Of a DNA stretch of 64,000 nucleotides, positions 24,609-52,997 are shown piece by piece. The position numbers and the translations under genes are program-made. Position 1 is the stretch's first letter; each line of letters opens with the position of its first letter. The DNA lies in NCBI GenBank assembly GCA_038245195.1, contig JBBRSU010000001.1, forward strand, positions 64,121 to 128,120, read 5' to 3'. Under the pieces are notes generated by a model that was given only the letters and a program-made list of their open reading frames with translations, did not search any database and was not told where the DNA came from. This DNA is from Candidatus Saccharimonadales bacterium (lineage in GTDB: Bacteria; Patescibacteriota; Saccharimonadia; Saccharimonadales; UBA10212).

Positions 24609-25130
24609 ATGCCTAAATTTATAGCATTTCTGCGGGGTGTTAATGTTGGTGGCCGAATTATTAAAATGGCCGAGCTTAAGACAGCTTTTGAAACGGCCGG
24701 TTTTAAGAAGGTTTCAACATTTTTACAAACGGGCAATGTGACATTTGACAGCCACCTTAAAGAATCGCTGCTTAAGGCTAAGATTGAGCGAATGCTAGCT
24801 AAAGCCTTTAGATATCCGGCTAAAGTTCAGGTTGTTTCATTTGAAAATTTAGCCAAAATAGTTGCGGCCAACCCATTTAGCGAAGCCTCGAGCGATTATC
24901 ATCAATACGTAATATTTATAGAAAACCAATTAGAAATTGCTTTAGTTGCCGAAGCCGGCAAACTACTTGGTGAAGAGCTGAAGATCGGGCAGGGGGTAGT
25001 TTACTGGAAAGTCAAAAAAGGCCAAACCCTAAAAAGTCCGTTCGCTAAATTACTAACCAAAACTAAATACAAAGACTTTAATACGAACCGCAATATCAAC
25101 ACTCTTCAAAAAATTATCAAATCAAGCTGA
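24609..25130 (+). CDS. DUF1697-family protein
   Basis: The N-terminus FLRGVNVGGRIIKMAELK is the DUF1697 signature. Confidence 0.78.
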   Translation: MPKFIAFLRGVNVGGRIIKMAELKTAFETAGFKKVSTFLQTGNVTFDSHLKESLLKAKIERMLAKAFRYPAKVQVVSFENLAKIVAANPFSEASSDYHQYVIFIENQLEIALVAEAGKLLGEELKIGQGVVYWKVKKGQTLKSPFAKLLTKTKYKDFNTNRNINTLQKIIKSS

Positions 25131-27729
25131 AAAACAAACTACTAACTAACAAGAAGCACAGTAAATAAACAAAGTATCGGGTCGGGATTTTTAAATACGT
25201 CGAGTCGTTAATCTTGAATAGAGCTGGCTTGGACGTACTAGCACCGAGCACTTTTGGGCTACTAGGTTGAGTTTTTATCGTCGCAGCTGTATTGATAGAC
25301 GACACTGAATTGTTTGTTGGGTTTTGACTAGCTCTAGCGACCCCTGCATCAGCATCCGTGGATATTAGGCTAGCTGTAGCCGATGTCGGTTTATTTGTAT
25401 TAGTTGGTTGAGGGCCGATGTTACCGTCACAGGCGTCATCCAGCCCGTCTTGGTCGTAATCTTGATTAGATGGCTCAATACCCACACATTTTTGGCTACT
25501 GTCTGAAGTATTATCACCGTCAATATCGTCCGCAGTTTTAGCTATATAAATGTCCTTGTATATGTCTACGGCTTGCCCAAAGATATCTATACCGTAAAAA
25601 TGCAGGCTGTGGTAACCGGCCGGAACGCTTCCGGGAATAGCCAATTGAGTTAATAGGTTCCCGCCAATGTCGTTCGTAAAGCTCCCCAAGCCGATAGAGT
25701 CTGAGTGTATCTCGGCTTTCAATACTGTATTAGGAGCTAGAGCATGTTGGGCTCCGTTAATCTCAATGTCTATCGGAGTTTGCTGGTAGGCAAAATCGGT
25801 AGCTAGAGTTGGCTCGTACTCTATAGAATTAATTGTCCGCCCGGTGTGGTTGATATTCAAGAAATCTAAATTGGTCTCTGAAGGCAGGCCATATGAAGAA
25901 CTGGCAACTGGCATAGGATTTGTTAAATTATGTGTTTTTGAAAGTACTGTGTTTTCCAATAACTGGTGCCCAAAGGCGTTTGGATGATAGCTCTCGTTCC
26001 CAAAAGGTCCTCGAAGAAAACCCGGAGCATCGTTGCCCGATGTTAGTGCGTTTACGGCAACCGACCCAGGCTCGGCTTCACATAGTTTATGGCCGTCTAA
26101 ACTATCCTGAGTATTGACATAGTAGGCACCCGATTTATCGGCCGCCAGTTTAACTACATCATCCAGATAGCTTATTATTTGCTGGGCAAAGTATAGTTCT
26201 TCCTGATTCAAATGGACATTGACAGCGCAATTGCCGTCGGTTTTGGCAATTTGAGGATATCCAATAATATATAGCCGCATATCGGCAGGACCGGTGGCTT
26301 TAAGTTTTTGATAAGTTTGGAGTAGTCGGGGGTACACAGTGTAGTTAACCGACCGAACAAGCTCCAGTCTATCCTCATAAGAACCGTAACAAGTCCCGGG
26401 CTCCAAGCACTTTCGCAATACGGCCGAAAAGCCCATGTCATTACCGCCAACCGACAGCACTACTGACCGCGGTTGATATTGAGTAACAAAATCTAGTTGA
26501 GCCCTATAGCCTGGCAAAAAATTTGTATAAATTTCATCATTATAGGAAATCTGGGTTTTTAATTTTGCTTGCGAGTGTTTAACGCCATTGGGTATTGAAG
26601 TGTCGTAAATATCGGCGGCGACTGCTCCGGAACAGGCCACAGAATGATACGAATTGAAGCCTAAGTCGTTTCCAATTAAGTATGGGTATGAGGACAAAGA
26701 CAGATGACAACCATTACTGGGTAAATCGGTAGTGGCCTGATAGTTAAAAGCACCTTCGCCGGATATGAATGAATCACCCAGGGCCAGATAATCTATCTGG
26801 GAGATAATACTGGAGTTGCTAAGAATGTAACGAGCCGTGCTACTAGATGTGCCGTATAGACTTAGTGTGTCATCATTCAAAAACCGGACATCATTAACAA
26901 GAACATCGCCTCCGGCTTGCTGATTCATGAAAGCTTTTAAACTTCGATTCTGACATGGAACCGGCCCGGTTATTACTCCGGGGGTAGTTGAGCAAGTGCT
27001 AATATCATAGATTTCAAACCGATTAAACTCATTTGAGCCTACAACTGCGTAGCGGCCGTCGTTTGATATCGCATTTTGAACGGCAGGGTCTAAACCAATA
27101 CTATAATTAAAGCCAGCAGCAAATGGGGTAACCTCAAAAGTCTGTAGGTTTATTCGTAACATCGCAACATTTGGCTCAGATACCACCATCCACTGACCAT
27201 TGGATGAAAAACTAATTGATGAATAGTCAGCCGCTAATTTTTGGTTTGATTTATCACTTAGCTCAGCGTCCGGCAGACGAGAGACTTTATAGTATTTATC
27301 CGCTCCACTGGTCTCTAATGTTAGTGAACTTGAAAAATTATAGTTGAAATACAGATTAAAACCATACACTGGATCGGCGGTATAGGTTATCGCTGTCGAA
27401 GAATTAGAGATTGGCAAAAAATGTTGGCGATTATCAACATTACTAATTACCGGCAAATAATCAGGGGTACCATTTAATCTAAGCTGGCTATTCTGGGTAG
27501 CGACTCCATAAAGCGTAGGAACGGTACAGCCTGACTTTCCATCATCTATGCAGTCAATGTTGCCATTTAGGGTGTTGGGTAGTAATTGGGTGTTTACTTG
27601 CTTCTGAATAAACAAATCAGAACTTATCCACGCTGATGCAGTTTGGGCTTTCACTATAAATCCACTTGTAAAAACGGCAGTTACGACAGCTGTCATAAAC
27701 ACCACCCTTAAGCGATTTAGCCTGCTCAT
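25117..27729 (-). CDS. large secreted SGNH/GDSL-hydrolase-domain surface protein with C-terminal hydrophobic anchor
   Basis: Signal peptide. SGNH blocks ALGDSFISGEG (I), SVGGNDMGF (III) and ESYHPNAFGH (V). Asp-rich DIDGDNTSD...DYDQDGLDDACD calcium-binding-like motifs. Terminal hydrophobic segment YFVYLLCFLLVSSLFFSLI. Confidence 0.75.
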   Translation of the reverse strand: MSRLNRLRVVFMTAVVTAVFTSGFIVKAQTASAWISSDLFIQKQVNTQLLPNTLNGNIDCIDDGKSGCTVPTLYGVATQNSQLRLNGTPDYLPVISNVDNRQHFLPISNSSTAITYTADPVYGFNLYFNYNFSSSLTLETSGADKYYKVSRLPDAELSDKSNQKLAADYSSISFSSNGQWMVVSEPNVAMLRINLQTFEVTPFAAGFNYSIGLDPAVQNAISNDGRYAVVGSNEFNRFEIYDISTCSTTPGVITGPVPCQNRSLKAFMNQQAGGDVLVNDVRFLNDDTLSLYGTSSSTARYILSNSSIISQIDYLALGDSFISGEGAFNYQATTDLPSNGCHLSLSSYPYLIGNDLGFNSYHSVACSGAVAADIYDTSIPNGVKHSQAKLKTQISYNDEIYTNFLPGYRAQLDFVTQYQPRSVVLSVGGNDMGFSAVLRKCLEPGTCYGSYEDRLELVRSVNYTVYPRLLQTYQKLKATGPADMRLYIIGYPQIAKTDGNCAVNVHLNQEELYFAQQIISYLDDVVKLAADKSGAYYVNTQDSLDGHKLCEAEPGSVAVNALTSGNDAPGFLRGPFGNESYHPNAFGHQLLENTVLSKTHNLTNPMPVASSSYGLPSETNLDFLNINHTGRTINSIEYEPTLATDFAYQQTPIDIEINGAQHALAPNTVLKAEIHSDSIGLGSFTNDIGGNLLTQLAIPGSVPAGYHSLHFYGIDIFGQAVDIYKDIYIAKTADDIDGDNTSDSSQKCVGIEPSNQDYDQDGLDDACDGNIGPQPTNTNKPTSATASLISTDADAGVARASQNPTNNSVSSINTAATIKTQPSSPKVLGASTSKPALFKINDSTYLKIPTRYFVYLLCFLLVSSLFFSLI

Positions 27730-27831: not shown

Positions 27832-28341
27832 TCAGGGCTTGGCGACGGAGAAGCTGTTGACGCCATCGCCGGTAATTTTGCCGACAGAATCGCTGTTGTA
27901 GTAGTAAAGTGGCATGCCCTTGTAAGCATATTGTTTGCCACCATCACTGCGAGTGATAACTGTAGCATTATCGGGCAGGGTGGTTGGGGCTTTGGAAGCA
28001 TCGTAAATCGGCCAAGCCGTTAAGCAGCTACCGGAACAATTACTAACTCCGGTTGTGTCGGAGGCGTAGGTGTACAAAGGTTTGCCATTACTACCGGCAA
28101 GGTATTGGCCCAGTTTGGAATCGGTTTTGGTAGTAACTACTTGGGCGGCAACTGTGGTTTTAGCCGTGGACTTTTTGGGAATCGGTGTTTGGTAAGCCGC
28201 CGCGTTATCCAGTGTAGCCCTTGTATCACTATTAGTATGGAAGACATACCAGGTAATAAAGGCTAATAAGCCGACAATTACTAAAACTAGAACAGTTTCC
28301 ACAGGCGAAAAACCGCTTTGATTAAACTTTTTCATTTCCAA
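27832..28341 (-). CDS. type IV pilin-like protein fused to two Y-x-(FWY)-x-x-D 'secreted repeat' (COG4315-like) modules
   Basis: Prepilin signal MEMKKFNQSG|FSPVETVLVLVIVGLLA (G-1, F+1, E+5). Two repeats follow: GKPLYTYASDTTGVSNCSGSCLTAWP and GMPLYYYNSDSVGKITGDG. Confidence 0.7.
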   Translation of the reverse strand: MEMKKFNQSGFSPVETVLVLVIVGLLAFITWYVFHTNSDTRATLDNAAAYQTPIPKKSTAKTTVAAQVVTTKTDSKLGQYLAGSNGKPLYTYASDTTGVSNCSGSCLTAWPIYDASKAPTTLPDNATVITRSDGGKQYAYKGMPLYYYNSDSVGKITGDGVNSFSVAKP

Positions 28342-28484: not shown

Positions 28485-28754
28485 ATGGAGAATTTAAGTA
28501 CCGGACCGCAGTTCGCTATGGATCAGAGCCAAATAATTGAACATATGGAAAGCCATTTGGAAGAGCTTAGAATTGGTTTTTATGACTTTCTAGGACCTGA
28601 TTCTGTAAGTGAATTAGCTAAATATTATCGAGAGGCACTTAGTTTTTTCTGTAATCCTAGCCTAATCGATAATATGTCACCGGAAGCACTTGAAGCAAGA
28701 TATTACTCGATCGTTAATGAAGCCAACGACCGGTTGGCAGAACTAATAACTTAG
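28485..28754 (+). CDS. hypothetical protein
   Basis: 89-aa ORF in an AT-rich region. No motif. Confidence 0.4.
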   Translation: MENLSTGPQFAMDQSQIIEHMESHLEELRIGFYDFLGPDSVSELAKYYREALSFFCNPSLIDNMSPEALEARYYSIVNEANDRLAELIT

Positions 28755-28797: not shown

Positions 28798-29160
28798 TCA
28801 ATTTAGCAGTTTGGATCGGTAGACATAAAAATACAAAGCTACGAACAATGGGATAAGCGGTACAAACGTAGTTAATCCATCAATCGTACTTGTGGCCGGA
28901 GATGCTCCATATCTTTGATCAAGCTTGAAACTATAAGCTAACTGATAGATTAAGGCAGTTATGGCAAATAAGATCCAGAAGCTTTTTGATATTAATCTAT
29001 GCTTATACGCATAACCGTATACCCCTATCAGCCCGACTATCATGAAGAATATGTTCAGCCAATCTACTAAATGTAACTTCCAGGTTACGTTGTTCCCGGT
29101 CACCAAAATGGCGGCTATTATAAAGGCTACCAGCAACCAGAAATAGACTTTCCAAATCAT
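28798..29160 (-). CDS. hypothetical polytopic membrane protein
   Basis: 120 aa with about four hydrophobic helices. Confidence 0.5.
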   Translation of the reverse strand: MIWKVYFWLLVAFIIAAILVTGNNVTWKLHLVDWLNIFFMIVGLIGVYGYAYKHRLISKSFWILFAITALIYQLAYSFKLDQRYGASPATSTIDGLTTFVPLIPLFVALYFYVYRSKLLN

Positions 29161-29191
29161 GTAATAAACAAAGCATAAAGTTCTTGTGCTT

Positions 29192-29268
29192 TGGTACGCG
29201 TGGCAGGATTCGAACCTACGACCTTCGGCTCCGCAAGCCGACGCTCTATCCAGCTGAGCTACACGCGC
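29192..29268 (-). tRNA. tRNA-Arg (anticodon GCG), CCA encoded
   Basis: Hand-folded cloverleaf: acceptor GCGCGTG/CACGCGT, D arm GCTC-AGCTGGATA-GAGC, anticodon arm TCGGC-TTGCGGA-GCCGA, T arm GTAGG-TTCGAAT-CCTGC, then A-CCA. Confidence 0.88.
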
Positions 29269-29311
29269 ACAACAGGGGTAATTCTAGCAAATTACAGAGA
29301 TAAAAGCCAGT

Positions 29312-29881
29312 TTACAGGCGCAAGCGGCGGGATAATCGGTCAACCGCGTCCATCTTGCGCTCTTCGTAAGGCAAGTAATCACCAAGCGAATCGATAATCT
29401 TTTCTCCGTCTTTTGGATCGAAATAAGCAGAGACTGGTGGCATGAACCGTTTGAGCGGAAAAAAATTGACACTGCTGAGCGGTCCTTCTTGCAGAACCGC
29501 GAATGATTTAAAAGAGCCATACGGGTAATTTTTGCCATTAACGCTAAGGCCGGCATCGGAAATTTGGTATTGCACCTTGCTAGGCTTATGGCCAGCAAAA
29601 ACCGCCACAATCACCCCAACTACCAAAATGGTACCGGTAGCAAAAAAGTCTTTTGACATCAGATAAACTAAGCCGGCGAGGAGTACAGTGCCAACCGCTA
29701 GAGTCATATACCAGCTGGAGGGGTGGGGGTGTTCAATAAACTCAGCGGCCTGCCACGAAATTTCAGCTGGCCGTTTGATATGGTTGGCCGGAGCTGAACT
29801 GCCTAATGAACTATTATTAGTATCTACTGAGGTTGTGCCGTTGGGTTTGTATTCCCATGGTGAGTTTTGATCTTGGTTCAT
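29312..29881 (-). CDS. hypothetical membrane protein
   Basis: 189 aa with two central TM helices (WYMTLAVGTVLLAGLVYL, GTILVVGVIVAVFAG) followed by a soluble C-terminal domain. Confidence 0.55.
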   Translation of the reverse strand: MNQDQNSPWEYKPNGTTSVDTNNSSLGSSAPANHIKRPAEISWQAAEFIEHPHPSSWYMTLAVGTVLLAGLVYLMSKDFFATGTILVVGVIVAVFAGHKPSKVQYQISDAGLSVNGKNYPYGSFKSFAVLQEGPLSSVNFFPLKRFMPPVSAYFDPKDGEKIIDSLGDYLPYEERKMDAVDRLSRRLRL

Positions 29882-29993
29882 AATTTAAGCTTTAGCTTGT
29901 AGAGATATTGTATCTAATTAGAGCCAGTAAGACCATCTGGTCATCGAAGGTGTTTATTTGATATACTTACCTCTGTTCTTTCAGCCCTACCAA

Positions 29994-30079
29994 GGAAGGG
30001 TGACCGAGCGGTTGAAGGTACCGGTCTTGAAAACCGGCAAACGAAAGTTTCGTGGGTTCGAATCCCACCCCTTCCGCCA
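29994..30079 (+). tRNA. tRNA-Ser (anticodon TGA), CCA encoded
   Basis: Class II tRNA: acceptor GGAAGGG/CCCTTCC, anticodon arm CCGGT-CTTGAAA-ACCGG, long variable arm, T arm GTGGG-TTCGAAT-CCCAC. Confidence 0.92.
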
Positions 30080-30089
30080 GTTACATCGA

Positions 30090-30182
30090 GGAGAGGTACC
30101 CAAGTGGTTGAAGGGGTCGGTTTGCTAAATCGATAGTGGGGCGCAAGCTCCAGCGAGGGTTCGAATCCCTCCCTCTCCGCCA
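30090..30182 (+). tRNA. tRNA-Ser (anticodon GCT), CCA encoded
   Basis: Acceptor GGAGAGG/CCTCTCC, anticodon arm TCGGT-TTGCTAA-ATCGA, long variable arm, T arm GAGGG-TTCGAAT-CCCTC. Confidence 0.92.
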
Positions 30183-30217
30183 AAATAAATACTTAACATG
30201 TTAAGTATTTATTTTTT
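30183..30217. terminator. perfect AT-rich palindrome / bidirectional terminator
   Basis: aaaataaatacttaaca|tgttaagtatttatttt is a perfect 32-nt palindrome followed by ttt. It sits between the tRNA-Ser 3' end and the comFC stop. Confidence 0.6.
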
Positions 30218-31594: not shown

Positions 31595-32020
31595 TTAACC
31601 GGTTGTCAGTTTACTCAGGGTAAACCGCACGATTAATTGGGCCAAAGCTACTACCACTAGGCCTATGATGGCATAAAGAATCGTGTTCTTAGCACTAGTT
31701 ACGCTGGTATCATTCCCGCCGCTAGTAATGTATCTAAAGCCGCCGACAATAATCATAATCACTGCCACAATGCCCACAATTGCCGATAACAGATTAACAA
31801 TTGTGTGAACAATACTGTTTATCCTATCTGTGGCATCACTTCCGGCAGATGAACACTGGCCCGGGCTTTCGGTAAACTGAAGGTTGGAACCAGCACACAG
31901 ACCATTATTTATCTGCTGTTGGGCATCCTGGGCAAAAACTGGTACAGCTAGACCGCCTGCAATCAGTACAGTGGCCACAAAGCCGCCAAGCCATATTTTA
32001 AACTTCTTCATACCCACCAT
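31595..32020 (-). CDS. VirB2/TrbC-like T4SS pilin paralog 1
   Basis: Signal peptide, Cys pair in the variable region, then a two-TM hairpin with the loop GGFRYITSGGN...SAKNTILYAIIGLVVVALAQ shared by all seven paralogs. Confidence 0.7.
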   Translation of the reverse strand: MVGMKKFKIWLGGFVATVLIAGGLAVPVFAQDAQQQINNGLCAGSNLQFTESPGQCSSAGSDATDRINSIVHTIVNLLSAIVGIVAVIMIIVGGFRYITSGGNDTSVTSAKNTILYAIIGLVVVALAQLIVRFTLSKLTTG

Positions 32021-32051
32021 TATATTGGAATATTATTCTCTATCCTAGTAA

Positions 32052-32492
32052 CTAGCCAGTTACGTTAGTAGTATTGTTCAATACAAAGTGAACAATAATT
32101 TGTGCTAGTGCTACGATGACTAGCCCAATGATTGCATATAGGATGGTATTCTTCGCTGATTTAGCACCTTCTGGGTTACCCGCACTGACAACATAGCGGA
32201 AACCACCGATAATTATCATTACTACCGCGATAGCACCGATTATAACCGATAACACGTTAATTACGGTTCTGATCAGCTTGCCTATGCCACTACTTCCTTG
32301 ATCGCAACCTTGCGTCCCTCCAGTGAGATCGATATTAGATCCGCTACACAGACATTGATTGGTATTGCTCGGGGTTACAGTAGTACCCGTGGTACAGTCA
32401 ATGGCCATAACCGTAACTGGTATTGCGGCAGTAAGGCTGAACATTACAACAGCAATCATGGATAGTGCGATTGATTTGATTTTGTTTATCAT
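32052..32492 (-). CDS. VirB2/TrbC-like T4SS pilin paralog 2
   Basis: Signal peptide, four Cys, GGFRYVVSAGN...SAKNTILYAIIGLVIVALAQ. Confidence 0.7.
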   Translation of the reverse strand: MINKIKSIALSMIAVVMFSLTAAIPVTVMAIDCTTGTTVTPSNTNQCLCSGSNIDLTGGTQGCDQGSSGIGKLIRTVINVLSVIIGAIAVVMIIIGGFRYVVSAGNPEGAKSAKNTILYAIIGLVIVALAQIIVHFVLNNTTNVTG

Positions 32493-32565
32493 TTTTTAGT
32501 TATTCCTTATTTATATTGTTTAAGTATATATTCTCTTGTAGCATAGTCAACTTGCTTACGGCAAA

Positions 32566-33015
32566 CTATTTACACTGGCCGGTCACAGTTTTCCCTTTCG
32601 GGCAGTCCTGAACACCGTTAATTACAAACTGAACAATGATCTGCGCGAACGCAACTATTACTAAGCCAACTAAGGCATATATTATCGTGTTCTTGGCACT
32701 CTTCGTGGCCTCGGCATTACCAGAGCTTGTAACATAACGGAAACCACCGACAATTAGCATAATCACTGCGGCGGCTCCAGCAAACACTGACATTATGTTT
32801 ATAACTGTTTTGATTGTATCGCTAACCGTCGTAGGTGCTCCGGATGGATCGCAATTTGCGGCGGTGCCATTGGCTTCACAGGTCCCACATTGAATCTGTT
32901 CTTTAGAACTTGCGGGTGCACTACAGTTGATTGCCGCATAAGCAGGCGACAAAGGGAACAGTGAGCCAGTGATTAGAGTCACAAGCAAAGTTATTTTTAT
33001 TATAAAGTTTTTCAT
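32566..33015 (-). CDS. VirB2/TrbC-like T4SS pilin paralog 3
   Basis: Signal peptide, four Cys, GGFRYVTSSGN...SAKNTIIYALVGLVIVAFAQ, plus an extra C-terminal Cys pair (DCPKGKTVTGQCK). Confidence 0.7.
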   Translation of the reverse strand: MKNFIIKITLLVTLITGSLFPLSPAYAAINCSAPASSKEQIQCGTCEANGTAANCDPSGAPTTVSDTIKTVINIMSVFAGAAAVIMLIVGGFRYVTSSGNAEATKSAKNTIIYALVGLVIVAFAQIIVQFVINGVQDCPKGKTVTGQCK

Positions 33016-33025
33016 ACTTACCTAT

Positions 33026-33433
33026 TTACTTTAACAGCCTATCTGTTACAAAAGAAATAGTGGTCCAAGCTAGAGCAACTATTATCAACCCAATTACAGC
33101 ATAAATAATTCTTTTTCTAGCGTTGGCTACAGCTTCGGCATTGCCCGAGGAAGTTATCATTGTAATACCGCCGAGAATTATATACACAACTGCAGCCACG
33201 CCAGTAGCAATTGCGATAATTTCAGTAGCGGTTTTAATAACTTTATTTACTGGATTAGTTGATGTACCCGAACCGATATCTTTACATACCGCACTGTTGG
33301 CCGCAGTGCTCCCCGATTTACAAATCTGAAATAATTGGCTGTTAGTGGTTGCTGCAAGTGTAGGACTTCCTAAAGCTAAAGTACTGTAGGCTATCAATGC
33401 TACCAGAAGAATTGCTGAAAATATTCTATTCAT
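33026..33433 (-). CDS. VirB2/TrbC-like T4SS pilin paralog 4
   Basis: Signal peptide, two Cys, GGITMITSSGN...NARKRIIYAVIGLIIVALA. Confidence 0.65.
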   Translation of the reverse strand: MNRIFSAILLVALIAYSTLALGSPTLAATTNSQLFQICKSGSTAANSAVCKDIGSGTSTNPVNKVIKTATEIIAIATGVAAVVYIILGGITMITSSGNAEAVANARKRIIYAVIGLIIVALAWTTISFVTDRLLK

Positions 33434-33705
33434 GGTGCTCTATTCAATACGAAATTCACAATTGTCGCTGCCAATGCTATTACCACTAAGCCCACGAGCG
33501 TATAAGTTATCATCCGCTTGGAATCAGCTACCTTAGTCGCGTCGCCCTGGGAAATAGTATAGCGGAATCCAGCAATCACTAGCATGAGTAGTGCGAGGGC
33601 TCCCATTATTCCCAAAATAATGTTGATAATGTTTGTGATGTCGTTAGCCTTGGCGTGTGGCAAGTTTGATGCGTCTACCAATATGGAAAAAAGGCCCATG
33701 CTCAA
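33430..33705 (-). CDS. VirB2/TrbC-like paralog 5 (short, no signal peptide or Cys region)
   Basis: 91 aa. AGFRYTISQGD...DSKRMITYTLVGLVVIALA. ATGA overlaps with both neighbours. Confidence 0.6.
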   Translation of the reverse strand: MSMGLFSILVDASNLPHAKANDITNIINIILGIMGALALLMLVIAGFRYTISQGDATKVADSKRMITYTLVGLVVIALAATIVNFVLNRAP

Positions 33706-34094
33706 CCTAACCTACTTCCAATAAATGAAACAGCCGCCGTAGCTACCAGCACCACTCCCAAGCCTAGCAATGAGTTAACTATTCTTTTACGCGAAGCTGT
33801 AATCTTATCAGAACTACCGGCAGCGGTTATGTAACTTATGCCTGCGACTATTATGGATATAACCGCCGCCAAGCCCGCTAAACGTAGTAGCATATCGATA
33901 ATTGCCAAGCCCACAAGCCAAGTATCACCTGGAAAATTAAAAGCCGGTACACACTTCCCCAGTGGGTCCTTTTCGGTCCCAAGATATTCCCACCAATGCG
34001 GGAAACCAAAAAATGAGCTCTTTGTTATAGTACAGACCGGTGCAGAAGCCGCCAGAAAAATGAACGGAATTTTTAGTAAAGCAAGCAGGTACAT
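33702..34094 (-). CDS. VirB2/TrbC-like paralog 6 (divergent, Trp-rich N-region)
   Basis: FFGFPHWWEYLG segment, two Cys, AGISYITAAGS...ASRKRIVNSLLGLGVVLVA. Confidence 0.55.
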   Translation of the reverse strand: MYLLALLKIPFIFLAASAPVCTITKSSFFGFPHWWEYLGTEKDPLGKCVPAFNFPGDTWLVGLAIIDMLLRLAGLAAVISIIVAGISYITAAGSSDKITASRKRIVNSLLGLGVVLVATAAVSFIGSRLG

Positions 34095-34538
34095 CTAGAG
34101 TCCCCCGGGAATTAGCCATTGCAGGAATGCAAAAGTGAAAATAAAAGCAACTAGTGCGATTAGACCATCTGATATTCGTTTCTTAGCCGCACCAGTTGCT
34201 GTTGAGTTATCTCCTGCGAGGCTATATTGAATGCCGCCAACAATAATTGAACCAATCACTACAATTGCCACGCCAGCCGATAAAAAGTTAACTATTAGGT
34301 TTATGTCCTTAACTATCGGGTCGGTTGCTATGCATTTTTGAACACCAACATCAGTAGAGTTATTACAGTTAGGGTTTGTCACTGTGGTGGTGGTAGCTGA
34401 GCCGCTAGTATCGCTCCCCGAGGAGTTGGATAACAATGCTAAAGTAGATGGAACAGTCATATTTAGACATATAAGAATCGCAGTCGCTAGAATTACTTTC
34501 TTAGATATTTGTTTTAGAGCTTTTTTCAATTGTTTCAT
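34095..34538 (-). CDS. VirB2/TrbC-like paralog 7 (first gene of the minus-strand array)
   Basis: Signal/anchor, Ser/Thr-rich region, two Cys, GGIQYSLAGDN...AAKKRISDGLIALVAFIFTFA. Its stop abuts the start of paralog 6. Confidence 0.6.
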   Translation of the reverse strand: MKQLKKALKQISKKVILATAILICLNMTVPSTLALLSNSSGSDTSGSATTTTVTNPNCNNSTDVGVQKCIATDPIVKDINLIVNFLSAGVAIVVIGSIIVGGIQYSLAGDNSTATGAAKKRISDGLIALVAFIFTFAFLQWLIPGGL

Positions 34539-34596
34539 ATTAAGATTGTTTAGTTAGAAATATAACATAATTATATAGATTTTTCTTGTGTTAAGC

Positions 34597-34617
34597 CGAC
34601 AGATTGACGACAGATTG
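34597..34617. repeat. tandem direct repeat CGACAGATTG x2 (11-bp period) in the divergent T4SS promoter region
   Basis: cgacagattg at 34597-34606 and again at 34608-34617. The repeat overlaps the -35 region of the plus-strand promoter. Confidence 0.6.
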
Positions 34618-34643
34618 TTGACTTATGCCTCTTATGCTATATT
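34615..34643 (+). promoter_or_regulatory. candidate extended -10 promoter of the plus-strand T4SS operon
   Basis: TTGTTG (34615-34620), 17-nt spacer, TGcTATATT (34635-34643). An alternative -35 TTGACT is at 34618. Confidence 0.35.
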
Positions 34644-34665
34644 TTAAATAAGCAGAATTGCAAAA

Positions 34666-37600
34666 ATGAAAACTTACAAAAAAATAAGTATTGGACTTAG
34701 CTTAGTGGTCGTGGTGCTATCGTTGTCTTTTGCTATTATAAGGCCCAGCTTAGCACTTGCCGATGCTACAGCCGGTGACCTGGGTGCTAGCATAGATACT
34801 TTCTCGGCTTTAGATTCGGCTACAATCAAGGCCAACTTAGGATCAAGTGGAACATATAACTTTATTGATAATAATCCGTATCCACAGGATTCTACATTTA
34901 ACTTTGTACCTCAGCCTAAAACCGTAGACGGACTGTGCGATCCCGGTAATGTGAAAGATCAAAATGGTGTGAGTGGATCAATAAAGTATGGGGTAACTCT
35001 ATTCCCAAACCCAAAAAATGCAACTGGACTTAAAGTCGATCCTATAAGTGCAGAAGTTAAATTAGGCTACACACCTGCTGGTGCACTTGGTTGTTCGGCC
35101 GTATTATTTAAAACCATGGTTAGCAACCCTAATGGGGTAGCGGCAGCAACTTATGAATATAGCGGGAATAATATTATTAACGCCCCAGGGTTCACTTCTG
35201 CCAACCTGAAGCCTGTTCCGAGTTCGAATAATGTATATGCCGCTGATACAACCGCCGGTACATGCGGTGGCGGTAACTTGATCGTAGTTAGTGCAACAAA
35301 CTTCAACTCTGGAACAAGATATGATCTAACATCGAATAAAAATAATGGTGGCCCAGGCACTGATGCTCATACTATTCCGGCCTTATCCAGTGTATTCCCG
35401 GCAGGCAATTGTTATTTAGCCCAAGCACCACTGGCTGAAACCATTGCCGGTTCGCCCGGCGGCACCGCCCCGGGTGGTACACCTGCCGGGGGGAATACCG
35501 TTGCCGATACTTCGTGTGAAGCACAATACACAGGTGCGGCCCACGTACTTAACTGGATTTTGTGCCCCATCCTGGATGGGATGGATTCAATATTCAACAC
35601 AATAAATGGGCAGGTCGAGGCACAATTGAACGTCTGCACGGGTATATCCAGTACAACAGGCTCGACCTGTGGTAATAATTTACTTACACCCCAAGTCAAA
35701 AAGTCGTGGGCAGTCTTCCGCGATCTGGCAACAGCTCTTTTAGTCATCGTTATGCTAATCATGGTTTTTTCACAGGCCATAAGTTTTGGGCCTTTCGATG
35801 CTTACACCGTTCGGAAAATGCTGCCCAAGATTGTTGCGGCGGTCATCCTCATGCAGATTTCTTGGCCACTTTTCAAATTTTTCGTAGACCTCTCGAACGA
35901 CTTGGGGCACGGTATACAGAATCTCATGCTTGCACCATTTGGTGGGACTGGTCAACTCCAATTCGATGCATTAATAGCAGCGGCAGGCAGCTTTGCACCT
36001 GCTGTTGCCACTGTTGGACTGTTTACAGCTTTAGCGATTGGAACCGTTCTTAGCGGTATTACGATTATGGGTGTGGCTCTATTAGGAGTTAGTGCAATTG
36101 CGTCGGTAATAGTTGGCCTTTTAGTATTACTTTTTAGGCAGATGTTAATAATTATGTCTATGATTCTGGCACCAATTGCACTTTTAGCCTGGATATTACC
36201 TGGTACTCAAAAATACTGGAAGCTCTGGAGCGATAACTTTATCAAATTATTATTTATGTTCCCGTTGATAATGGCTATGATTGCAGCTGGCAAGATTTTT
36301 GCGAAGATTGGTGTCGATACTGGTACTGGTATATTCGGAGTTATTATTGTTTTTGTTGGTTTCCTGGGGCCACTGTGGTTCTTGCCGAAAACCTTCAAAT
36401 GGGGCGGCCAAGTATTTGCTGCGGCTGCCAATGGTACCATGGGGGCTACCAAGAACCTGCGTAATTCTCCTGGTAAATATGCGCTATCTGGCGCAAAGAC
36501 TAACCGTGAACAGCGTGGCTTTGATCGTGCAGAGCGATTGGCTAATAACAGGGGAAGACGCTTTGATAGTGTTTTTGCCGGCAGATTCAATAGGACATTA
36601 GGCCAATCCGCTTTAAGAAATAGGTTCCAGGATACTCTAGAAAAAGGTCGCAAAGCCGCTGATGAGGCAGCTCAACGCTCAACACTTGGCGGTCCATATG
36701 AGAGATTAGACCACCCTGATAAAGTTGGCGCAGACATACTTGTAGCTCAAGGAAAACTCGACACTCAGTTTGGTACGGGCATGGATGGGCGACATGCCGC
36801 GACCCAGCGAGCGGCACTTGAGCGACTAGCTAAATATGGTGACTGGGACGCTATCTCTGCAGTCAGAGATGGGGGTTACATGGGCGAAGAGGGTGAACGA
36901 GTTTGGCAAGATTTTGTAGCAAAGAATATCAGTGCAATTCACCAAAACACTCCGCACCTTTCACCGCAGCGTACAGATCTAAGTGTATTAGGCCGAAGAG
37001 AATTCTCGGCAGTTAAAGATTATGAATGGGAAGAGTATACCCGTGCTGCCGAGAGCGGACTAACTCGTAACGGCACCACCGGCTTGCCTGAGCCTGCGGG
37101 TGACCAAATAGGCCAGCGGTCCCGATTTATTGCTCAAGCTAAAGCGATGGAAGCAGACACTCAGTTTATGGCGACCGTAAGTCAACGTGGGCAAGAAGCA
37201 ATTGCTCGTGTAGCAGCTTTGAATAACTGGAGTCCAAACGTCAGCTTAGAAGGAGGGGCACTTCACCTGCCTGTACAGGCGTTCGAGTCGACAGCTACAC
37301 CCGAGGAAAGAACAGAAGCATTGCAAAGTATTAATGATCATTTGTTTAGACTTACCCCCGACGGGAAACCGACTAATGCCGCCAAATCAACTAGATCCGA
37401 GCTCGGAAGATTGCTGGGTAGCGGTACTTTACCCGCCAATGCCCAAACCGCGTTAGAAAATCATTTGGTAGACATCCGATTGCAGGCTGCCAGTTCACCG
37501 CAAGCTAAAGAAGTATACGATGATGTAGTAGGCAATATTGAAGGCGAGTTGCGAAACCGGGATGCTAGGATTCGCGCTGGTGTTGCCTCAGAAGTCCGAG

Positions 37601-37695
37601 CTACCCCAGCGAATGTTGAAGCTGCAAGCAATGTGGTGCAAGGCCAGGTAAATGAAACTCGCACAAGAATGCGCAGTAAGGGCTTGGACGTATAG
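34666..37695 (+). CDS. giant VirB6/TrbL-like polytopic membrane protein (secreted N-domain, ~6 TM core, ~400-aa cytoplasmic C-domain)
   Basis: Signal/anchor, an N-terminal domain of about 300 aa with Cys residues, then a dense TM block around aa 345-590 typical of VirB6-type channel proteins. The C-terminal domain is unrecognisable. The call rests on topology and context. Confidence 0.55.
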   Translation: MKTYKKISIGLSLVVVVLSLSFAIIRPSLALADATAGDLGASIDTFSALDSATIKANLGSSGTYNFIDNNPYPQDSTFNFVPQPKTVDGLCDPGNVKDQNGVSGSIKYGVTLFPNPKNATGLKVDPISAEVKLGYTPAGALGCSAVLFKTMVSNPNGVAAATYEYSGNNIINAPGFTSANLKPVPSSNNVYAADTTAGTCGGGNLIVVSATNFNSGTRYDLTSNKNNGGPGTDAHTIPALSSVFPAGNCYLAQAPLAETIAGSPGGTAPGGTPAGGNTVADTSCEAQYTGAAHVLNWILCPILDGMDSIFNTINGQVEAQLNVCTGISSTTGSTCGNNLLTPQVKKSWAVFRDLATALLVIVMLIMVFSQAISFGPFDAYTVRKMLPKIVAAVILMQISWPLFKFFVDLSNDLGHGIQNLMLAPFGGTGQLQFDALIAAAGSFAPAVATVGLFTALAIGTVLSGITIMGVALLGVSAIASVIVGLLVLLFRQMLIIMSMILAPIALLAWILPGTQKYWKLWSDNFIKLLFMFPLIMAMIAAGKIFAKIGVDTGTGIFGVIIVFVGFLGPLWFLPKTFKWGGQVFAAAANGTMGATKNLRNSPGKYALSGAKTNREQRGFDRAERLANNRGRRFDSVFAGRFNRTLGQSALRNRFQDTLEKGRKAADEAAQRSTLGGPYERLDHPDKVGADILVAQGKLDTQFGTGMDGRHAATQRAALERLAKYGDWDAISAVRDGGYMGEEGERVWQDFVAKNISAIHQNTPHLSPQRTDLSVLGRREFSAVKDYEWEEYTRAAESGLTRNGTTGLPEPAGDQIGQRSRFIAQAKAMEADTQFMATVSQRGQEAIARVAALNNWSPNVSLEGGALHLPVQAFESTATPEERTEALQSINDHLFRLTPDGKPTNAAKSTRSELGRLLGSGTLPANAQTALENHLVDIRLQAASSPQAKEVYDDVVGNIEGELRNRDARIRAGVASEVRATPANVEAASNVVQGQVNETRTRMRSKGLDV

Positions 37696-37704
37696 GTATA
37701 ATCT

Positions 37705-39123
37705 ATGTCATCGCCTGAAAATCCTCAATCAAATTCGCAAGAACCAAGCTATAGCAGAGGCGATCCCGTACGCGTTTACCGTGAAAGAGACGGCACCATC
37801 CAACCCGAAGATGATTGGGAATATAGATTGTATGACGAGTGGAAAGATCACGAGGTGGCTTCTAGGCATAACGAAGAAGGTGGAGTAACCGAATTTGAGC
37901 ACACTCCAAAAAAAGTATTTGATAGTTGGCAAAGAGAAAAAGCCGCCGCCGAATCCGGCAGGCTAATAACTGAGGGTTCCGTCGTGACTTCTGGGAAAGT
38001 AGCGGAAATAATTCTCAGAGATGAAGCAGATTTAGTTGACAATTCTCATACCCCTCCGATCGAATCAGACATGGATGGCTCACCGGAAGAACCAATAGAA
38101 AAGCCGACTAATCGCATTGATAGCGAACCCGATGATCTGACTGATATCCCCGAAGAGGTCCGAGAATTGTCAGAAAAACATGGATATCCTATTGAAGTAT
38201 TTTTACGAGCACAAACCGATCCCGACATTGCTGATATCTTAAGGAGTAAAGGTATTGATTGGGGTGCAGTGCACGACTCCGCAGAATTATCAGAGGACAC
38301 ACATCATGAAGTTACTCAATATCAGCTTGATAAGGCTGAGAAATTACACGGGGTCCGAGTATCAGCTGAGAATATCAGATTCGCAAGGCTAGAAGCACAA
38401 CAAGGCAATCTTCGGCCAGCGGATTACTTGGCGGGCGTTGGAGTTGACTTAGGTTTTCCGCGCCTAGATCCGCCAGATCCTGTCATACGTTTGAGTGAGG
38501 TCGGTCGGAAACGCCGTGAGGATGTAGTGAGATTAATAGCTCGTATCGAAGAAGACCCGGCGGAAGTAAAAAAATCACTTAGACGCCCCGGAGAGTTACC
38601 CATAGGCCTACTAAATCTTTCACCTATACGAGCGGTCAACAAAAGGTTATTAGCTTGGAAAATATCTAGAAAAGAAATTAATGACCGGCCCGGTGTTATT
38701 AGTAATTTACAGGCTGAGTATGCAGCCCTAGAGGCTTTGGGGGACAGGGACGAACTACAAGAAAAAGAATTTAAGAAGTTAGAATCGCAAATTAGTAAAC
38801 TCAAAAGTCAACAATATAATGATGGGCTACTCGGACTAGGATTACCTAAATATGTTCTTTACCGCGATTACATTAATCGGCTTGATGAAAGCGTAAAAGC
38901 ACATAAACGAAGGTTAGGCTTATTGCAGCGCCATAAGCTAAAAGACTCAGTTACAACGCGTCGAGATCTCGCATATAGAATCTCAGATAGCGACAGGTCA
39001 GTGAAGGATTTGAGCAGAGGTGTAATACATGATTACGATAATCCAGAAAGTGTGCATGACCACGAAAGATTTAAAAACGATAACTCATTGTTCAGGACCA
39101 GTCTCGATAAAAGAAACCGATGA
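37705..39123 (+). CDS. hypothetical soluble acidic/coiled-coil protein within the T4SS operon
   Basis: 472 aa with no TM segment, no NTPase motif and no recognisable family. Starts 9 nt after the upstream gene. Confidence 0.55.
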   Translation: MSSPENPQSNSQEPSYSRGDPVRVYRERDGTIQPEDDWEYRLYDEWKDHEVASRHNEEGGVTEFEHTPKKVFDSWQREKAAAESGRLITEGSVVTSGKVAEIILRDEADLVDNSHTPPIESDMDGSPEEPIEKPTNRIDSEPDDLTDIPEEVRELSEKHGYPIEVFLRAQTDPDIADILRSKGIDWGAVHDSAELSEDTHHEVTQYQLDKAEKLHGVRVSAENIRFARLEAQQGNLRPADYLAGVGVDLGFPRLDPPDPVIRLSEVGRKRREDVVRLIARIEEDPAEVKKSLRRPGELPIGLLNLSPIRAVNKRLLAWKISRKEINDRPGVISNLQAEYAALEALGDRDELQEKEFKKLESQISKLKSQQYNDGLLGLGLPKYVLYRDYINRLDESVKAHKRRLGLLQRHKLKDSVTTRRDLAYRISDSDRSVKDLSRGVIHDYDNPESVHDHERFKNDNSLFRTSLDKRNR

Positions 39124-39190
39124 CTGTAAAGCAAAAGCTTGTTGGAATGCTGAGTTGCGCTGGGATTTAATCTATTAGATACTTGATGCG

Positions 39191-40192
39191 ATGGCTGTAT
39201 ATAAGGTAATTCAAGATGTCGAGGCCGAGGACAAACTACTTGGCCCTCTAAGCTTTAAGGCATTTATTTACGCAATCATTGCCGGCCTTTGCGGATTTAT
39301 AAATTTTAAACTGTTGTTTTTAGGGACTCCCATTAAGTGGGCAATTATGCCTCTCCTCTCATTCCCTATGATTCTTTTCGGCGTTTTGGCATCACCCCTA
39401 GGCCACGATCAGCCAACCGAAGTTTGGCTTTTATCAAGAATCAAGTTTTTCCTAAAGACAAGAAAACGAATTTGGGACCAGGCAGGCTTAGAAGAACTGG
39501 TGACAGTAACAGCTCCTAAGAAACTAGAACAGCATCTTACTAAGGATATTACTCAGAGTGAGGTCCATAGCCGACTCAAGACCTTAGCTAGTACTTTAGA
39601 CACCCGCGGCTGGGCAATCAAAAACGTCGATACAAACCTTAACACAACCGTACCCAATAACCCGGGGCTAAGCCAATCATCTGATAGGCTGGTGGCAAAT
39701 GCTGGGTATACACAGCCGGCGACGGTTATTGATGTACGACCAGCCGATGATATTTTAGACGAACAAAACAACCCCACCGCTCAAAAATTCGCCAGCCTTA
39801 TGCAGCAGGCTGATTCGAATCGCAAACAAACGGTTTTAGAAACCATGCAAAACTTAATTAACGACGATGACCAAGGTGATGGCATTAAATTATCCGATGC
39901 AAATGACTTCCAAAGCCGAATGGCCAAGGCTAGGGCTAGCTTTAGTAACCAGCACAGCAAAGATTCAAAACATGCTAATTCACAACATAAAGTTATTGAT
40001 TCAAAAAACGTCCACCACGAACCGCCAAAAAAAGCTGAGCCAACCCCGATGACAAGCGAACGCCAAGCTGTTAATATGGAGTTAGCCCAAAGCGGTAGTG
40101 CTTTTAGTGTATCGACTTTGTCTCAGCTGGCCAATCGCCAGCCCCGGATGGAGCAAACTGGGCCCAACGAAGTTACGATTTCACTGCACTAG
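39191..40192 (+). CDS. PrgI-family (VirB3-like) membrane protein with long C-terminal extension
   Basis: The N-terminus MAVYKVIQDVEAEDKLLGPLSFKAFIYAIIAGL..., two TM helices, then DQPTEVWLLSRIKFFLKTRKRIW match the PrgI/VirB3-analog pattern of monoderm T4SSs. Confidence 0.55.
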   Translation: MAVYKVIQDVEAEDKLLGPLSFKAFIYAIIAGLCGFINFKLLFLGTPIKWAIMPLLSFPMILFGVLASPLGHDQPTEVWLLSRIKFFLKTRKRIWDQAGLEELVTVTAPKKLEQHLTKDITQSEVHSRLKTLASTLDTRGWAIKNVDTNLNTTVPNNPGLSQSSDRLVANAGYTQPATVIDVRPADDILDEQNNPTAQKFASLMQQADSNRKQTVLETMQNLINDDDQGDGIKLSDANDFQSRMAKARASFSNQHSKDSKHANSQHKVIDSKNVHHEPPKKAEPTPMTSERQAVNMELAQSGSAFSVSTLSQLANRQPRMEQTGPNEVTISLH

Positions 40193-40237
40193 GCTAATTA
40201 AACAGCCTAAACCAAAAACGGGTGGTAAAAATTAAAG

Positions 40238-41101
40238 ATGAACCCAGCTAGTCAACCAACTACCAACACGCCTGGCCCTCAGCCAGTTTATTCTGGTGAG
40301 GATTTTGTACCAGGTACAGTTAATGCACCCAATGCACCAGGTATAGTCCCCCCACAGCAATCTATTACCAACCCTAACAGTACCCAAAACGCCCTTCAGA
40401 TTAGTGAAATACGCGACGGCATAGTGATTATGAACGACGGCAGTTTTAGAGCAGTAGTAATGTGTAAGTCCATTAATTTCGATTTAATGAGCCCCCAGGA
40501 ACGTGAAGCCGTAGAGTTTAGCTACCAGGGCTTCCTAAACTCCCTATACTTCCCAATCCAAATTTTTGTAAGAAGCCAAAAAGTCGATATGCGTCCCTAC
40601 CTGGAAAAACTCGATAAAATCCGGACTGGCCAGGATAACATGTTGCTGGGTTTGCTTATGGAAGACTACATCGCATTCCTGGCTGACATCGTCCAGCAAA
40701 CAAACATTATGGATAAGAAGTTTTACATAGTTATAAAATTCCCAGATGTTGAAGTTGATGTGCGTAAAGCCTTAAAACAAAGCACCAGTTTCTTTACCGG
40801 CTTAGGCGAGCTATTTAGCTCCGGCAAAACCGCACATGTAACAATCGATGAGTCTACCTTAGAAAAAGCCAAAACCGAGCTTCGTAACCGGGTCCAGGCT
40901 GTTATGCAGGGCCTGGCTCAGTGCGGAGTACAAAGTTTGCCGTTGGATACCGAGGAGTTAATTGAGCTTTACTACGATGCCTACAACCCCGATACCGCCA
41001 CTCGGCAACAGATTAAAGACTTTAAAGACTTAACTGCACCGGTGATTTCAAAGGGCGTGGGCCCAGCACCTCAGCCTAATTTAAATGGAGGCCCAAGCTA
41101 G
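40238..41101 (+). CDS. VirB4 N-terminal-domain-like protein (separate ORF)
   Basis: ISEIRDGIVIMNDGSFRAVVMCKSINFDLMSPQEREAVEFSYQGFLNSLYFPIQIFVRSQKVDMRPYLEKL resembles the first ~200 aa of monoderm VirB4/TcpF/Orf16-type ATPases. Its stop TAG shares one nt with the GTG start of the ATPase. Confidence 0.5.
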   Translation: MNPASQPTTNTPGPQPVYSGEDFVPGTVNAPNAPGIVPPQQSITNPNSTQNALQISEIRDGIVIMNDGSFRAVVMCKSINFDLMSPQEREAVEFSYQGFLNSLYFPIQIFVRSQKVDMRPYLEKLDKIRTGQDNMLLGLLMEDYIAFLADIVQQTNIMDKKFYIVIKFPDVEVDVRKALKQSTSFFTGLGELFSSGKTAHVTIDESTLEKAKTELRNRVQAVMQGLAQCGVQSLPLDTEELIELYYDAYNPDTATRQQIKDFKDLTAPVISKGVGPAPQPNLNGGPS

Positions 41102-43005: not shown

Positions 43006-43016
43006 GCTTGTAGCTT

Positions 43017-49284: not shown

Positions 49285-49317
49285 TAGCCCTAGCTTACAG
49301 CTTTAGCCAAAGGGGTT

Positions 49318-50409: not shown

Positions 50410-50652
50410 TAATATAAATCCTTTATTAATTTAGTATTAGTAATAGGTCCTGTGGAAAGCGTGTAGAACTTTAGCCCCAACAGTTTAAAACGGCCGTAAA
50501 TAGGCTGTGCAAACAAACTAAGCTTAGTGGTAAAAGCTGTGCTATTAAGCATGTACAAACTAACCACCAAAAACCGTAAAACCAGACGGCCTGTGGATAT
50601 TGCGTACAAGTTAAAAACTTGTACCAAGCTTGTACTCAATTTATCCACTAAC
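50410..50652. other. candidate oriC element in the dnaA-dnaN spacer (DnaA boxes, DnaA-trio-like repeat, AT-rich unwinding region)
   Basis: TGTGGAAAG (50451-50459), TGTGGATAT (50592-50600), TTATCCACT (50641-50649). TAG-TAT-TAG-TAA-TAG (50432-50446) plus GTCC lie adjacent to a box. AT-rich 50410-50431. 9-bp-stem hairpin at 50604-50624. Confidence 0.55.
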
Positions 50653-52933: not shown

Positions 52934-52997
52934 TTTTTACGCTGTTTTATAGGGGTTATCATGTTATTATAGGTCCAGTTCAAGGAGCACTGCCCCC

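Follow-up and report, generated by a model that had tools for sequence, protein, structure and literature searches.

A prepilin-type N-terminus without a predicted pilin fold on a COG4315 repeat protein of Saccharimonadales

We analysed a stretch of 64 kb from the genome of a Candidatus Saccharimonadales bacterium (contig JBBRSU010000001.1, positions 64,121 to 128,120; the whole stretch is called the window below) and in it a small gene whose predicted product, here called the target, carries an N-terminus of the type found in prepilins in front of a two-repeat COG4315 domain. A comparison with its relatives shows that this fusion is real, conserved and selected. Judged by its sequence, the N-terminus of the target belongs to a large and specific class of class III-like signal-anchors that stand on diverse envelope domains. 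With some confidence, we lean towards reading the target as a stalked Saccharimonadales envelope protein, a substrate of prepilin peptidase that tethers or displays its COG4315 domain in a design resembling that of the archaeal bindosome or of modular pilins, with a prepilin-type signal that was derived from a plain membrane anchor.

The conservation of the N-terminus is the central piece of evidence. A class III signal peptide (SPIII) has a hydrophilic leader that ends in Gly or Ala and is followed by 20-25 mainly hydrophobic residues, often or usually with a Glu at position 5 (PMC10191384). The target has a hydrophilic leader that ends in Gly and a hydrophobic run with Glu at +5, and among all open reading frames (ORFs) of at least 90 residues in the window it is the sole one with a prepilin-like motif (G-1, F+1, E+5, hydrophobic run). 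A large protein search gave 481 relatives of the target, the named records among which are Candidatus Saccharimonadales or Saccharibacteria, and N-termini were compared in the best 120 of them. In 77 of these 120 the N-terminus is like that of the target (group A), and in 42 (group B, for example P0076-P0120) a generic membrane anchor with the pattern MRKG.W...GVIVVV...YAIFHKSS precedes the same stalk and globular domain. In group A, Gly-1 is present in 74 of 74 sequences and Glu+5 in 73 of 74, or 76 of 77 if three sequences missed by the pattern are added. An aromatic residue, Phe or Tyr, occupies position +1 in 68/74, and the leader is rich in Lys and Arg and 7-10 residues long in 71/74. Within the helix every sequence has L+8 and W+21, while I+12, F+18 and F+24 each occur in 72-73 of the 74. 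The mean pairwise identity in group A is 63% for the hydrophobic segment and 67% for the globular domain, with the lowest value in the stalk (38%); in group B, the hydrophobic segment reaches 37% as compared to 75% for the globular domain. Because the group A helix is nearly as conserved as its domain, whereas the group B anchor is not, the group A helix is under sequence-specific constraint that goes beyond what a lipid-exposed anchor needs.

The first-pass annotation of this DNA had described a prepilin signal fused to COG4315 repeats and suggested looking for the same fusion in other genomes. The fusion was indeed found there, in the 77 group A sequences. On the other hand, its view that this is an unusual domain combination has to be qualified: while the fusion is real, it is less singular than supposed, since it is carried by at least 77 clusters at 90% identity, some relatives are already labelled by the Joint Genome Institute (JGI) as [quoted passage not shown], and the N-terminal module also stands on about 50 other cargo groups.

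The gene itself, proposed as a minus-strand ORF at 27832-28341, is well supported by a strong PF03640 match, the 481 homologues and a confident AlphaFold model. The start, however, has to be moved. A TTG codon at 28341 would yield the N-terminus "MEMKK..." of the first-pass annotation, but the homologues all begin with MKK, MRK or MLK at the equivalent Met, and the ATG at 28335 is preceded by a Shine-Dalgarno sequence (GGGGAG) 9 nt upstream. For these reasons the product is most likely a protein of 167 residues beginning MKKFNQSG/FSPVE... (a slash marks the predicted cleavage site), with a leader of 8 residues, and the TTG start is unlikely; G-1, F+1 and E+5 are confirmed. From the motif, prepilin peptidase is predicted to cleave after Gly8. 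The layout of the target is MKKFNQSG/FSPVETVLVLVIVGLLAFITWYVF-HTNSDTRATLDNAAAYQTPIPKKSTAKTTVAAQV-(globular domain), and its parts are listed in Table 1. A scan for promoters and terminators around the gene revealed nothing on the minus strand that exceeds the shuffled expectation. The idea that the target is not a real gene, or that its motif arose by chance, has the small size of the ORF in its favour and nothing else. Besides the homologues, the strong Pfam match and the high AlphaFold confidence, an identical copy of the protein on an independent Logan contig (SRR19962014) and conserved synteny speak against it, and we consider it already refuted.

Next to the N-terminus, the globular domain is the second defining part of the target. 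PF03640 (Lipoprotein_15, "secreted repeat of unknown function") matches twice, scoring 79.6 bits where the cut-off is 24.4 (E-value 1.2e-22), and the two Y-x-(FWY)-x-x-D motifs are present as LYTYASD and LYYYNSD, so that the two COG4315-type repeats reported in the first pass are indeed there. Invariant residues of the domain include Y78, L79, L87, Y88, D93, S98, N99, C100, G102, C104, W108 and P109, and the invariant signature consists of N-C-x-G-x-C...W-P plus the two Y-x-aromatic-x-x-D motifs. The conserved Cys pair would most simply form a disulfide. The NCBIfam model NF040526 (SCO0930 equivalog) gives a partial match to the target, over model positions 58-173 of 311, with 64.1 bits as compared to a cut-off of 275. 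There is no lipobox in the target, the first Cys being residue 100; relatives outside the Candidate Phyla Radiation (CPR) have L-x-x-C lipoboxes or Sec signals. We found no related solved structure, neither by sequence nor with Foldseek, and the literature on COG4315, PF03640 and SCO0930 yielded incidental mentions and no functional study.

Some information on this domain can be drawn from gene neighbourhoods in other bacteria. In Burkholderiales, a COG4315 gene, often duplicated, is directly followed by an extracytoplasmic function (ECF) sigma factor, which was confirmed with Pfam in two loci (L075 and L082); the ORF that follows the sigma factor has an anti-sigma-like N-terminus and no Pfam match. 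This arrangement is seen in four loci (L073, L075, L082 and L088), at about 9.4-11.7 kb in each: small genes for COG4315 lipoproteins, in many cases a tandem pair, come first, then immediately an ECF sigma factor and after it a probable anti-sigma factor. The conservation of this context may give a hint of what the domain does. The target gene has no such neighbour. The linkage to ECF sigma factors, together with the MarR neighbour of the group B genes, points weakly to a role of the domain in the physiology of envelope stress, redox or metals, more than in adhesion, and we regard this as a lead.

We then turn to the question of whether the target is a pilin. The type IV pilin fold ("lollipop") has an alpha1 helix of about 50 residues, the C-terminal half of which is packed on a globular head (PMC10191384). 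An AlphaFold2 model of the target, based on an alignment of 51 sequences (mean predicted local distance difference test, pLDDT, 84.3), consists of a 23-residue helix at residues 11-33 (pLDDT about 90), a disordered stretch at residues 34-66 (pLDDT below 50 over 39-61) and a compact beta domain at residues 67-167 (pLDDT 94-97). Neither an alpha1 of about 50 residues nor an alpha1-C helix nor a pilin head is seen in the model. Structure prediction, which had been recommended in the first-pass annotation, thus gave a confident beta domain but no pilin fold. Since alpha1-C and the head are missing from the model, the target would not be a structural pilin: as modelled, it has the signal peptide of a pilin and lacks the fold. 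Furthermore, Glu5 serves in docking, through a salt bridge with the N-terminus of the subunit that lies above, and the tip-capping subunit is characteristically without it (PMC10191384), so that the invariant Glu5 argues against the capping position of a "tip pilin". The conservation of Glu5 suggests instead that the helix docks onto something pilin-like. The earlier proposal of a tip or minor pilin carried by a pilus scaffold, as usually understood, is therefore not upheld.

The N-terminus of the target is part of something larger. A first sign of this was that the fetched Saccharibacteria loci contain proteins with a similar N-terminus and stalk and with differing C-termini (Table 1). When a profile of 38 columns, made from the N-terminus of group A, was compared with 1.84 billion cluster representatives, it matched 2,229 of them at E<=1e-3, of which 98 reach E<=1e-10. 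The best 150 matches all lie at the N-terminus or directly behind a short upstream extension, and the spacing G-x4-E is found in 148/148 new sequences among them. The consensus of this module is M-K-x-N-Q-K-G/F-S-A-V-E-G-L-L-I-L-V-I-V-G-L-I-G-F-V-G-W-Y-V-W-H-S-K, with E+5 in 147 of 147 sequences, L+8 in 146 of 147, and G+14, G+17, F+18, G+20, W+21, Y+22 and V+23 each conserved in about 80-98%. The target is a somewhat divergent member, in which A17 and A/V20 replace G17 and G20. A separate search with a 44-column profile of the module returned only 8 very short proteins.

What follows the module is very diverse. The 115 matches of at least 150 residues (among the best 150) fall into 50 cargo groups that have no BLAST link between their cargo regions; 16 carry PsbP_2, one carries PF03640 and most have no Pfam match. 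Among all module bearers noticed, the cargo also includes a protein of 360 residues rich in Asn, Ser and Thr with a repetitive sequence. In their source databases, module-bearing proteins are named "hypothetical protein", in one case "RodZ" and in some "PulG/PulJ". PF07963 recognises 4 of the 115 long matches at E<=1e-3 and the NCBIfam model PRK10506 recognises 39. A local hidden Markov model (HMM) gives 17-85 bits to module bearers and 7-14 bits to canonical pilins encoded at the same loci. Since the SPIII models PF07963 and TIGR02532 miss most of the module, genome annotation under-counts it. We found no paper that describes a class of class III-like signal-anchors made of alpha1-N only. Judged from these sequences, the module looks like a general device for surface display.

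To place the target in its lineage, we compared it with the GTDB species representatives, among which the best full-length match is 58% identical. Fifty-three of the species-representative loci (L010-L062) are of Saccharibacteria type by record title or protein N-terminus. A prepilin-type N-terminus is found in 3 of these 53 (L010, L011 and L014), and nearly all other complete ORFs have a plain anchor with a ...Y.[IV]FHKS junction. Two further candidates (L051 and L057) were rejected as false positives of the search pattern. The junction Y.[IV]FHKS after the helix is common to groups A and B. In a neighbour-joining tree of the 100-residue domain, which is rough and has no bootstrap, 73 of 79 group A sequences fall into one pure clade and the six strays are nearby, which is compatible with a single origin of the prepilin-type group. 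The simplest history would lead from a lipoprotein in other bacteria to a plain anchor in Saccharibacteria and then to a prepilin-type signal in one sub-lineage, with the order of these steps deduced from their distribution.

Are there pilus genes with which such a protein could work? Type IV pili (T4P) are reported to be nearly universal in Saccharibacteria (PMC11623550; PMC6744442). In the window, 26 proteins, including most ORFs of at least 280 residues, were scanned against Pfam without a match to T2SSE, T2SSF or Peptidase_A24. The target gene had been called an orphan pilin gene, and within the 64-kb window this description holds for a pilin-like gene, with no T4P component among the scanned proteins and no other pilin-like ORF of at least 90 residues. 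A related genome gives a different picture: in L004 an orthologue that is 63% identical to the target lies about 2 kb from pilM, in divergent orientation, and the T4P cluster there encodes PilM, PilB, PilT, PilC (with two T2SSE matches and one to T2SSF), a canonical pilin and a Peptidase_A24 protein. Thus, at least one genome with the prepilin-type COG4315 family has a prepilin peptidase. The canonical pilin of L004 has a similar leader, ...KRTQG/FTIIEVLIVLAIASL... (KRTQG/FTIIE), and a long amphipathic alpha1-C. In L038 (OY969420.1, a 780-kb Saccharibacteria-like chromosome), a COG4315 gene with a plain anchor is immediately preceded by two canonical type IV pilin genes.

From these observations we can sketch how the target might work. 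Sec would insert the precursor, with the basic leader staying in the cytoplasm. Prepilin peptidase (PilD) would cut after Gly8, and Phe9 may then be methylated. The mature protein would be retained by the 24-residue alpha1-N-like helix, and the COG4315 domain would be held outside the wall on a flexible Ser/Thr-rich stalk of about 34 residues that is possibly glycosylated. The helix may make specific contacts with the T4P machinery or with pilin helices, because Glu5 and the whole helix are conserved beyond the needs of a lipid-exposed anchor. In evolution, the prepilin-type signal would have replaced, or arisen from, the plain N-terminal anchor that stands where other bacteria have a lipobox. 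Going by the sequence evidence, it is likely that the target is a PilD substrate; if so, a membrane-tethered (bindosome-like) protein and a filament-loaded one are about evenly balanced.

The sketch has to be weighed against several observations, most of which would fit an ordinary uncleaved N-terminal signal anchor, in which the G...E pattern is a lineage feature of the transmembrane helix, used for example in oligomerisation, and has no relation to prepilin peptidase or pili. The first-pass annotation had proposed HMM searches of both halves of the protein, and while PF03640 was found twice above its cut-off, the pilin models of the N-terminus stay below theirs: PF07963 (N_methyl) gives 14.5 bits on the N-terminus alone (cut-off 21.2), TIGR02532 gives no match and GspH an E-value of 0.05, while canonical pilins from related loci reach 23-31 bits in the same PF07963/TIGR02532 signature test. 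Even at E<=1, PF07963 matches 11 and TIGR02532 7 of the 51 aligned family members. The end of the helix (WYVFH.K), with its belt of aromatic and basic residues, resembles that of a stable membrane anchor, and the sister group B is tethered by a plain anchor with the identical ...FHKS junction, which means that tethering alone needs no pilin motif. The target gene adjoins no pilus genes in the window, nor do its counterparts in L002 and L005, and the search for a prepilin peptidase in the genome of the target extended to the 64-kb window and short Logan contigs only. The taxonomy of the module, finally, is based on few named records; the single NCBI record that names an organism gives Candidatus Saccharibacteria. 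Nevertheless, we judge an uncleaved anchor to be quite improbable. A basic leader with an invariant Gly, an aromatic residue at +1, an invariant acidic residue at +5 and a hydrophobic run of 21-24 residues amount to the definition of an SPIII (PMC10191384), and the pattern recurs in 148/148 top matches of the wider module. Pilin and pseudopilin models do detect the N-terminus weakly (at E<=1, GspH in 26/51 and PRK10506 in 15/51 aligned family members, besides the 39/115 long module matches), the JGI pipeline labels some members as prepilin-type, and a buried Glu would be costly if it were not used.

A genuine minor pilin, processed by PilD, extracted from the membrane and polymerised into a type IV pilus, so that the COG4315 domain is displayed along the filament or near its tip as an adhesin or ligand binder, would explain why the SPIII motif contains an invariant Glu5, the subunit-docking residue (PMC10191384), and why alpha1-N is so strongly conserved. 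It would also agree with the orthologue next to the T4P cluster in L004 and with the two pilin genes directly upstream of the COG4315 gene in L038. In addition, pilins that consist of a helix alone are known, as in Geobacter (PMC10191384), and pilins with grafted domains are widespread (PMC8179133). On the other hand, with no alpha1-C and no pilin head predicted, the position of an outer-shell subunit could not be filled, and Glu5 speaks against the capping position. Moreover, the local HMM draws a clear line between the module and canonical pilins encoded at the same loci, the closest relatives that share the domain use a plain anchor, and where COG4315 genes occur elsewhere, their link is with ECF sigma factors and not with adhesion. 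For these reasons we think that a minor pilin is rather unlikely, and we prefer the stalked, peptidase-processed envelope protein.

The known systems that come closest to such a protein each share part of its design. Modular type IV pilins, such as PilB and PilC of Streptococcus sanguinis, also combine a class III N-terminal signal with a C-terminal domain that is not specific to pili, and CPR phyla are among their known carriers (PMC8179133). In these pilins, however, the pilin module is complete, with both a beta-sheet head and an alpha1 of about 50 residues, and the linker is short (PMC8179133), whereas the target has alpha1-N alone and a disordered stalk of about 34 residues. In the supplementary text of that survey, the part of it that we consulted, PF03640/IPR005297 was not found (PMC8179133). 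The archaeal bindosome provides a precedent for cargo that is not a pilin, since sugar-binding proteins of Sulfolobus carry class III signal peptides (PMC3047682). It resembles the target in that one type of signal serves many non-pilin extracytoplasmic domains, which are tethered or assembled at the surface (PMC3047682). It differs in being archaeal and in its cargo, a substrate-binding protein of an ATP-binding cassette (ABC) transporter with dedicated Bas assembly, while the cargo of the target is PF03640; no ABC transporter or Bas-like genes were seen near the target gene or in L002, L004 and L005. With the COG4315/PF03640 "Lipoprotein_15" proteins of the SCO0930 type, the target shares the two-repeat domain and both the Y-x-(FWY)-x-x-D and the C-x-G-x-C...W-P signatures, but it has a class III-type signal in place of the lipobox and falls far short of the equivalog cut-off (64 vs 275 bits). 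The plain-anchored group B proteins of Saccharibacteria are the most similar, with the same stalk, globular domain and FHKS junction and an overall identity to the target of 47-58% (alignment A1). Their anchor, on the other hand, is generic, poorly conserved and without Gly-1 and Glu+5, and their genes occupy a different locus (MarR-KsgA-G5).

The surroundings of the target gene are summarised in Table 1. The window has a G+C content of 45% and contains seven type IV secretion system (T4SS) pilin genes, PrgI, a VirB4-like ATPase, HSP20, a ComF-like gene, three tRNAs and dnaA/dnaN. The neighbourhood of group A genes is conserved and matches it: T4SS pilins, HSP20, a ComF-like gene, a gene for a 189-residue protein and the target gene are followed by MscL/YbjQ/YchF. 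In L002 and L005, the 189-residue membrane protein, which has no Pfam family, is likewise encoded upstream of the target gene and is thus a conserved neighbour. Two smaller ORFs between them, one of which encodes a membrane protein with four helices, match no family. Several of the ORFs listed at 29190-30190 are mere translations of tRNA genes. Downstream of the target gene, the SGNH/GDSL gene reported in the first-pass annotation was confirmed. Its 870-residue product has an N-terminal signal, a central GDSL/SGNH hydrolase domain at residues 316-590, a C-terminal region rich in Thr, Ser and Pro and a hydrophobic C-terminal tail, and is probably a large esterase attached to the wall or membrane. 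A functional link between this gene and the target was considered and rejected, as the SGNH neighbour is absent from the syntenic loci L002, L004 and L005.

Further away, seven small T4SS-pilin genes (PF18895/TrbC-like) stand in tandem opposite a block of large genes. This T4SS block (31595-47519) is the monoderm-type conjugation-like T4SS described for Patescibacteria, and in L002 and L005, too, it is found in synteny with the target gene. Beyond it lies a run of dnaA-, dnaN- and recF-like genes with rnpA and yidC opposite, so that the window probably spans the region of the chromosomal replication origin. The DnaA and DNA polymerase III beta clamp domains were confirmed through the Pfam annotation of a Logan contig (L009), and recF was recognised from its N-terminal sequence only.

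Table 1. Coordinates of the target gene, its parts, related genes in other loci and further features of the window.
Feature	Sequence	Coordinates	Strand	Basis or remark
COG4315 gene (target), 167-residue precursor plus stop codon	window	27832..28335	minus	ORF listing; stop 27832-27834
Leader peptide MKKFNQSG, residues 1-8, basic, hydrophilic, Gly(-1) last	window	28312..28335	minus	leader comparison in relatives
Alpha1-N-like hydrophobic helix FSPVETVLVLVIVGLLAFITWYVF, residues 9-32; Phe+1, Glu+5, Gly+14, Trp+21	window	28240..28311	minus	AlphaFold2, conservation
Disordered Ser/Thr/Ala/Pro/Lys-rich stalk HTNSDTRATLDNAAAYQTPIPKKSTAKTTVAAQV, residues 33-66	window	28138..28239	minus	low pLDDT, no secondary structure
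Globular two-repeat COG4315/PF03640 domain, residues 67-167	window	27835..28137	minus	Pfam, invariant residues, AlphaFold2
Pilin/pilin/COG4315 run	L038	8504-9028, 9340-9894, 9956-10405	plus	second case, after L004, of the COG4315 family beside pilus genes
Module-bearing protein	L008	8635-8916	minus	locus scan
Module-bearing protein	L019	10084-10581	minus	locus scan
Module-bearing protein, 274-residue ORF	L019			locus scan
Module-bearing protein, 219-residue ORF	L028			locus scan/profile search
Module-bearing protein	L036	7895-8644	minus	locus scan/profile search
Module-bearing protein	L038	17714-18796	plus	locus scan/profile search
Module-bearing proteins P0121-P0268				locus scan/profile search
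SGNH/GDSL gene, 870 residues	window	25117-27729	minus
ORF, 89 residues	window	28485-28754	plus
Four-helix membrane protein, 120 residues	window	28798-29160	minus
tRNA-Arg-GCG	window	29192-29268	minus
Membrane protein, 189 residues	window	29312-29881	minus
tRNA-Ser-TGA	window	29994-30079	plus
tRNA-Ser-GCT	window	30090-30182	plus
Seven T4SS-pilin genes	window	31595-34538	minus
Large-gene block	window	34666-47519	plus
PrgI, in the large-gene block	window	39191-40192
VirB4/TraG-like ATPase, in the large-gene block	window	41101-43005
dnaA/dnaN/recF-like run	window	48244-52032	minus	ORFs 50653-52032, 49318-50409, 48244-49284
rnpA and yidC	window	52580-53978	plus

Saccharibacteria, like other CPR bacteria, are ultrasmall epibionts whose biology is played out at the cell surface, with type IV pili central to host binding. 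The proteins that carry the module would have the handle of a pilin without its body, and they are currently annotated as "hypothetical" or "lipoprotein". For the COG4315 domain, the target adds a second mode of targeting, and the plain-anchored and prepilin-type forms offer two natural "isoforms" that can be compared. The main value of the target gene, in our opinion, is that it led to a wider class of cargo proteins with alpha1-N only. It is possible, though doubtful, that Saccharibacteria and perhaps other CPR bacteria have a dedicated display pathway that depends on prepilin peptidase, in which the alpha1-N-only module and dozens of unrelated cargoes on Ser/Thr-rich stalks would be loaded by the T4P machinery into pili or a bindosome-like pseudopilus, replacing the role of lipoproteins, and the target would be a cargo that has switched to it from a plain anchor. 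If true, such a pathway would be the bacterial counterpart of the archaeal bindosome.

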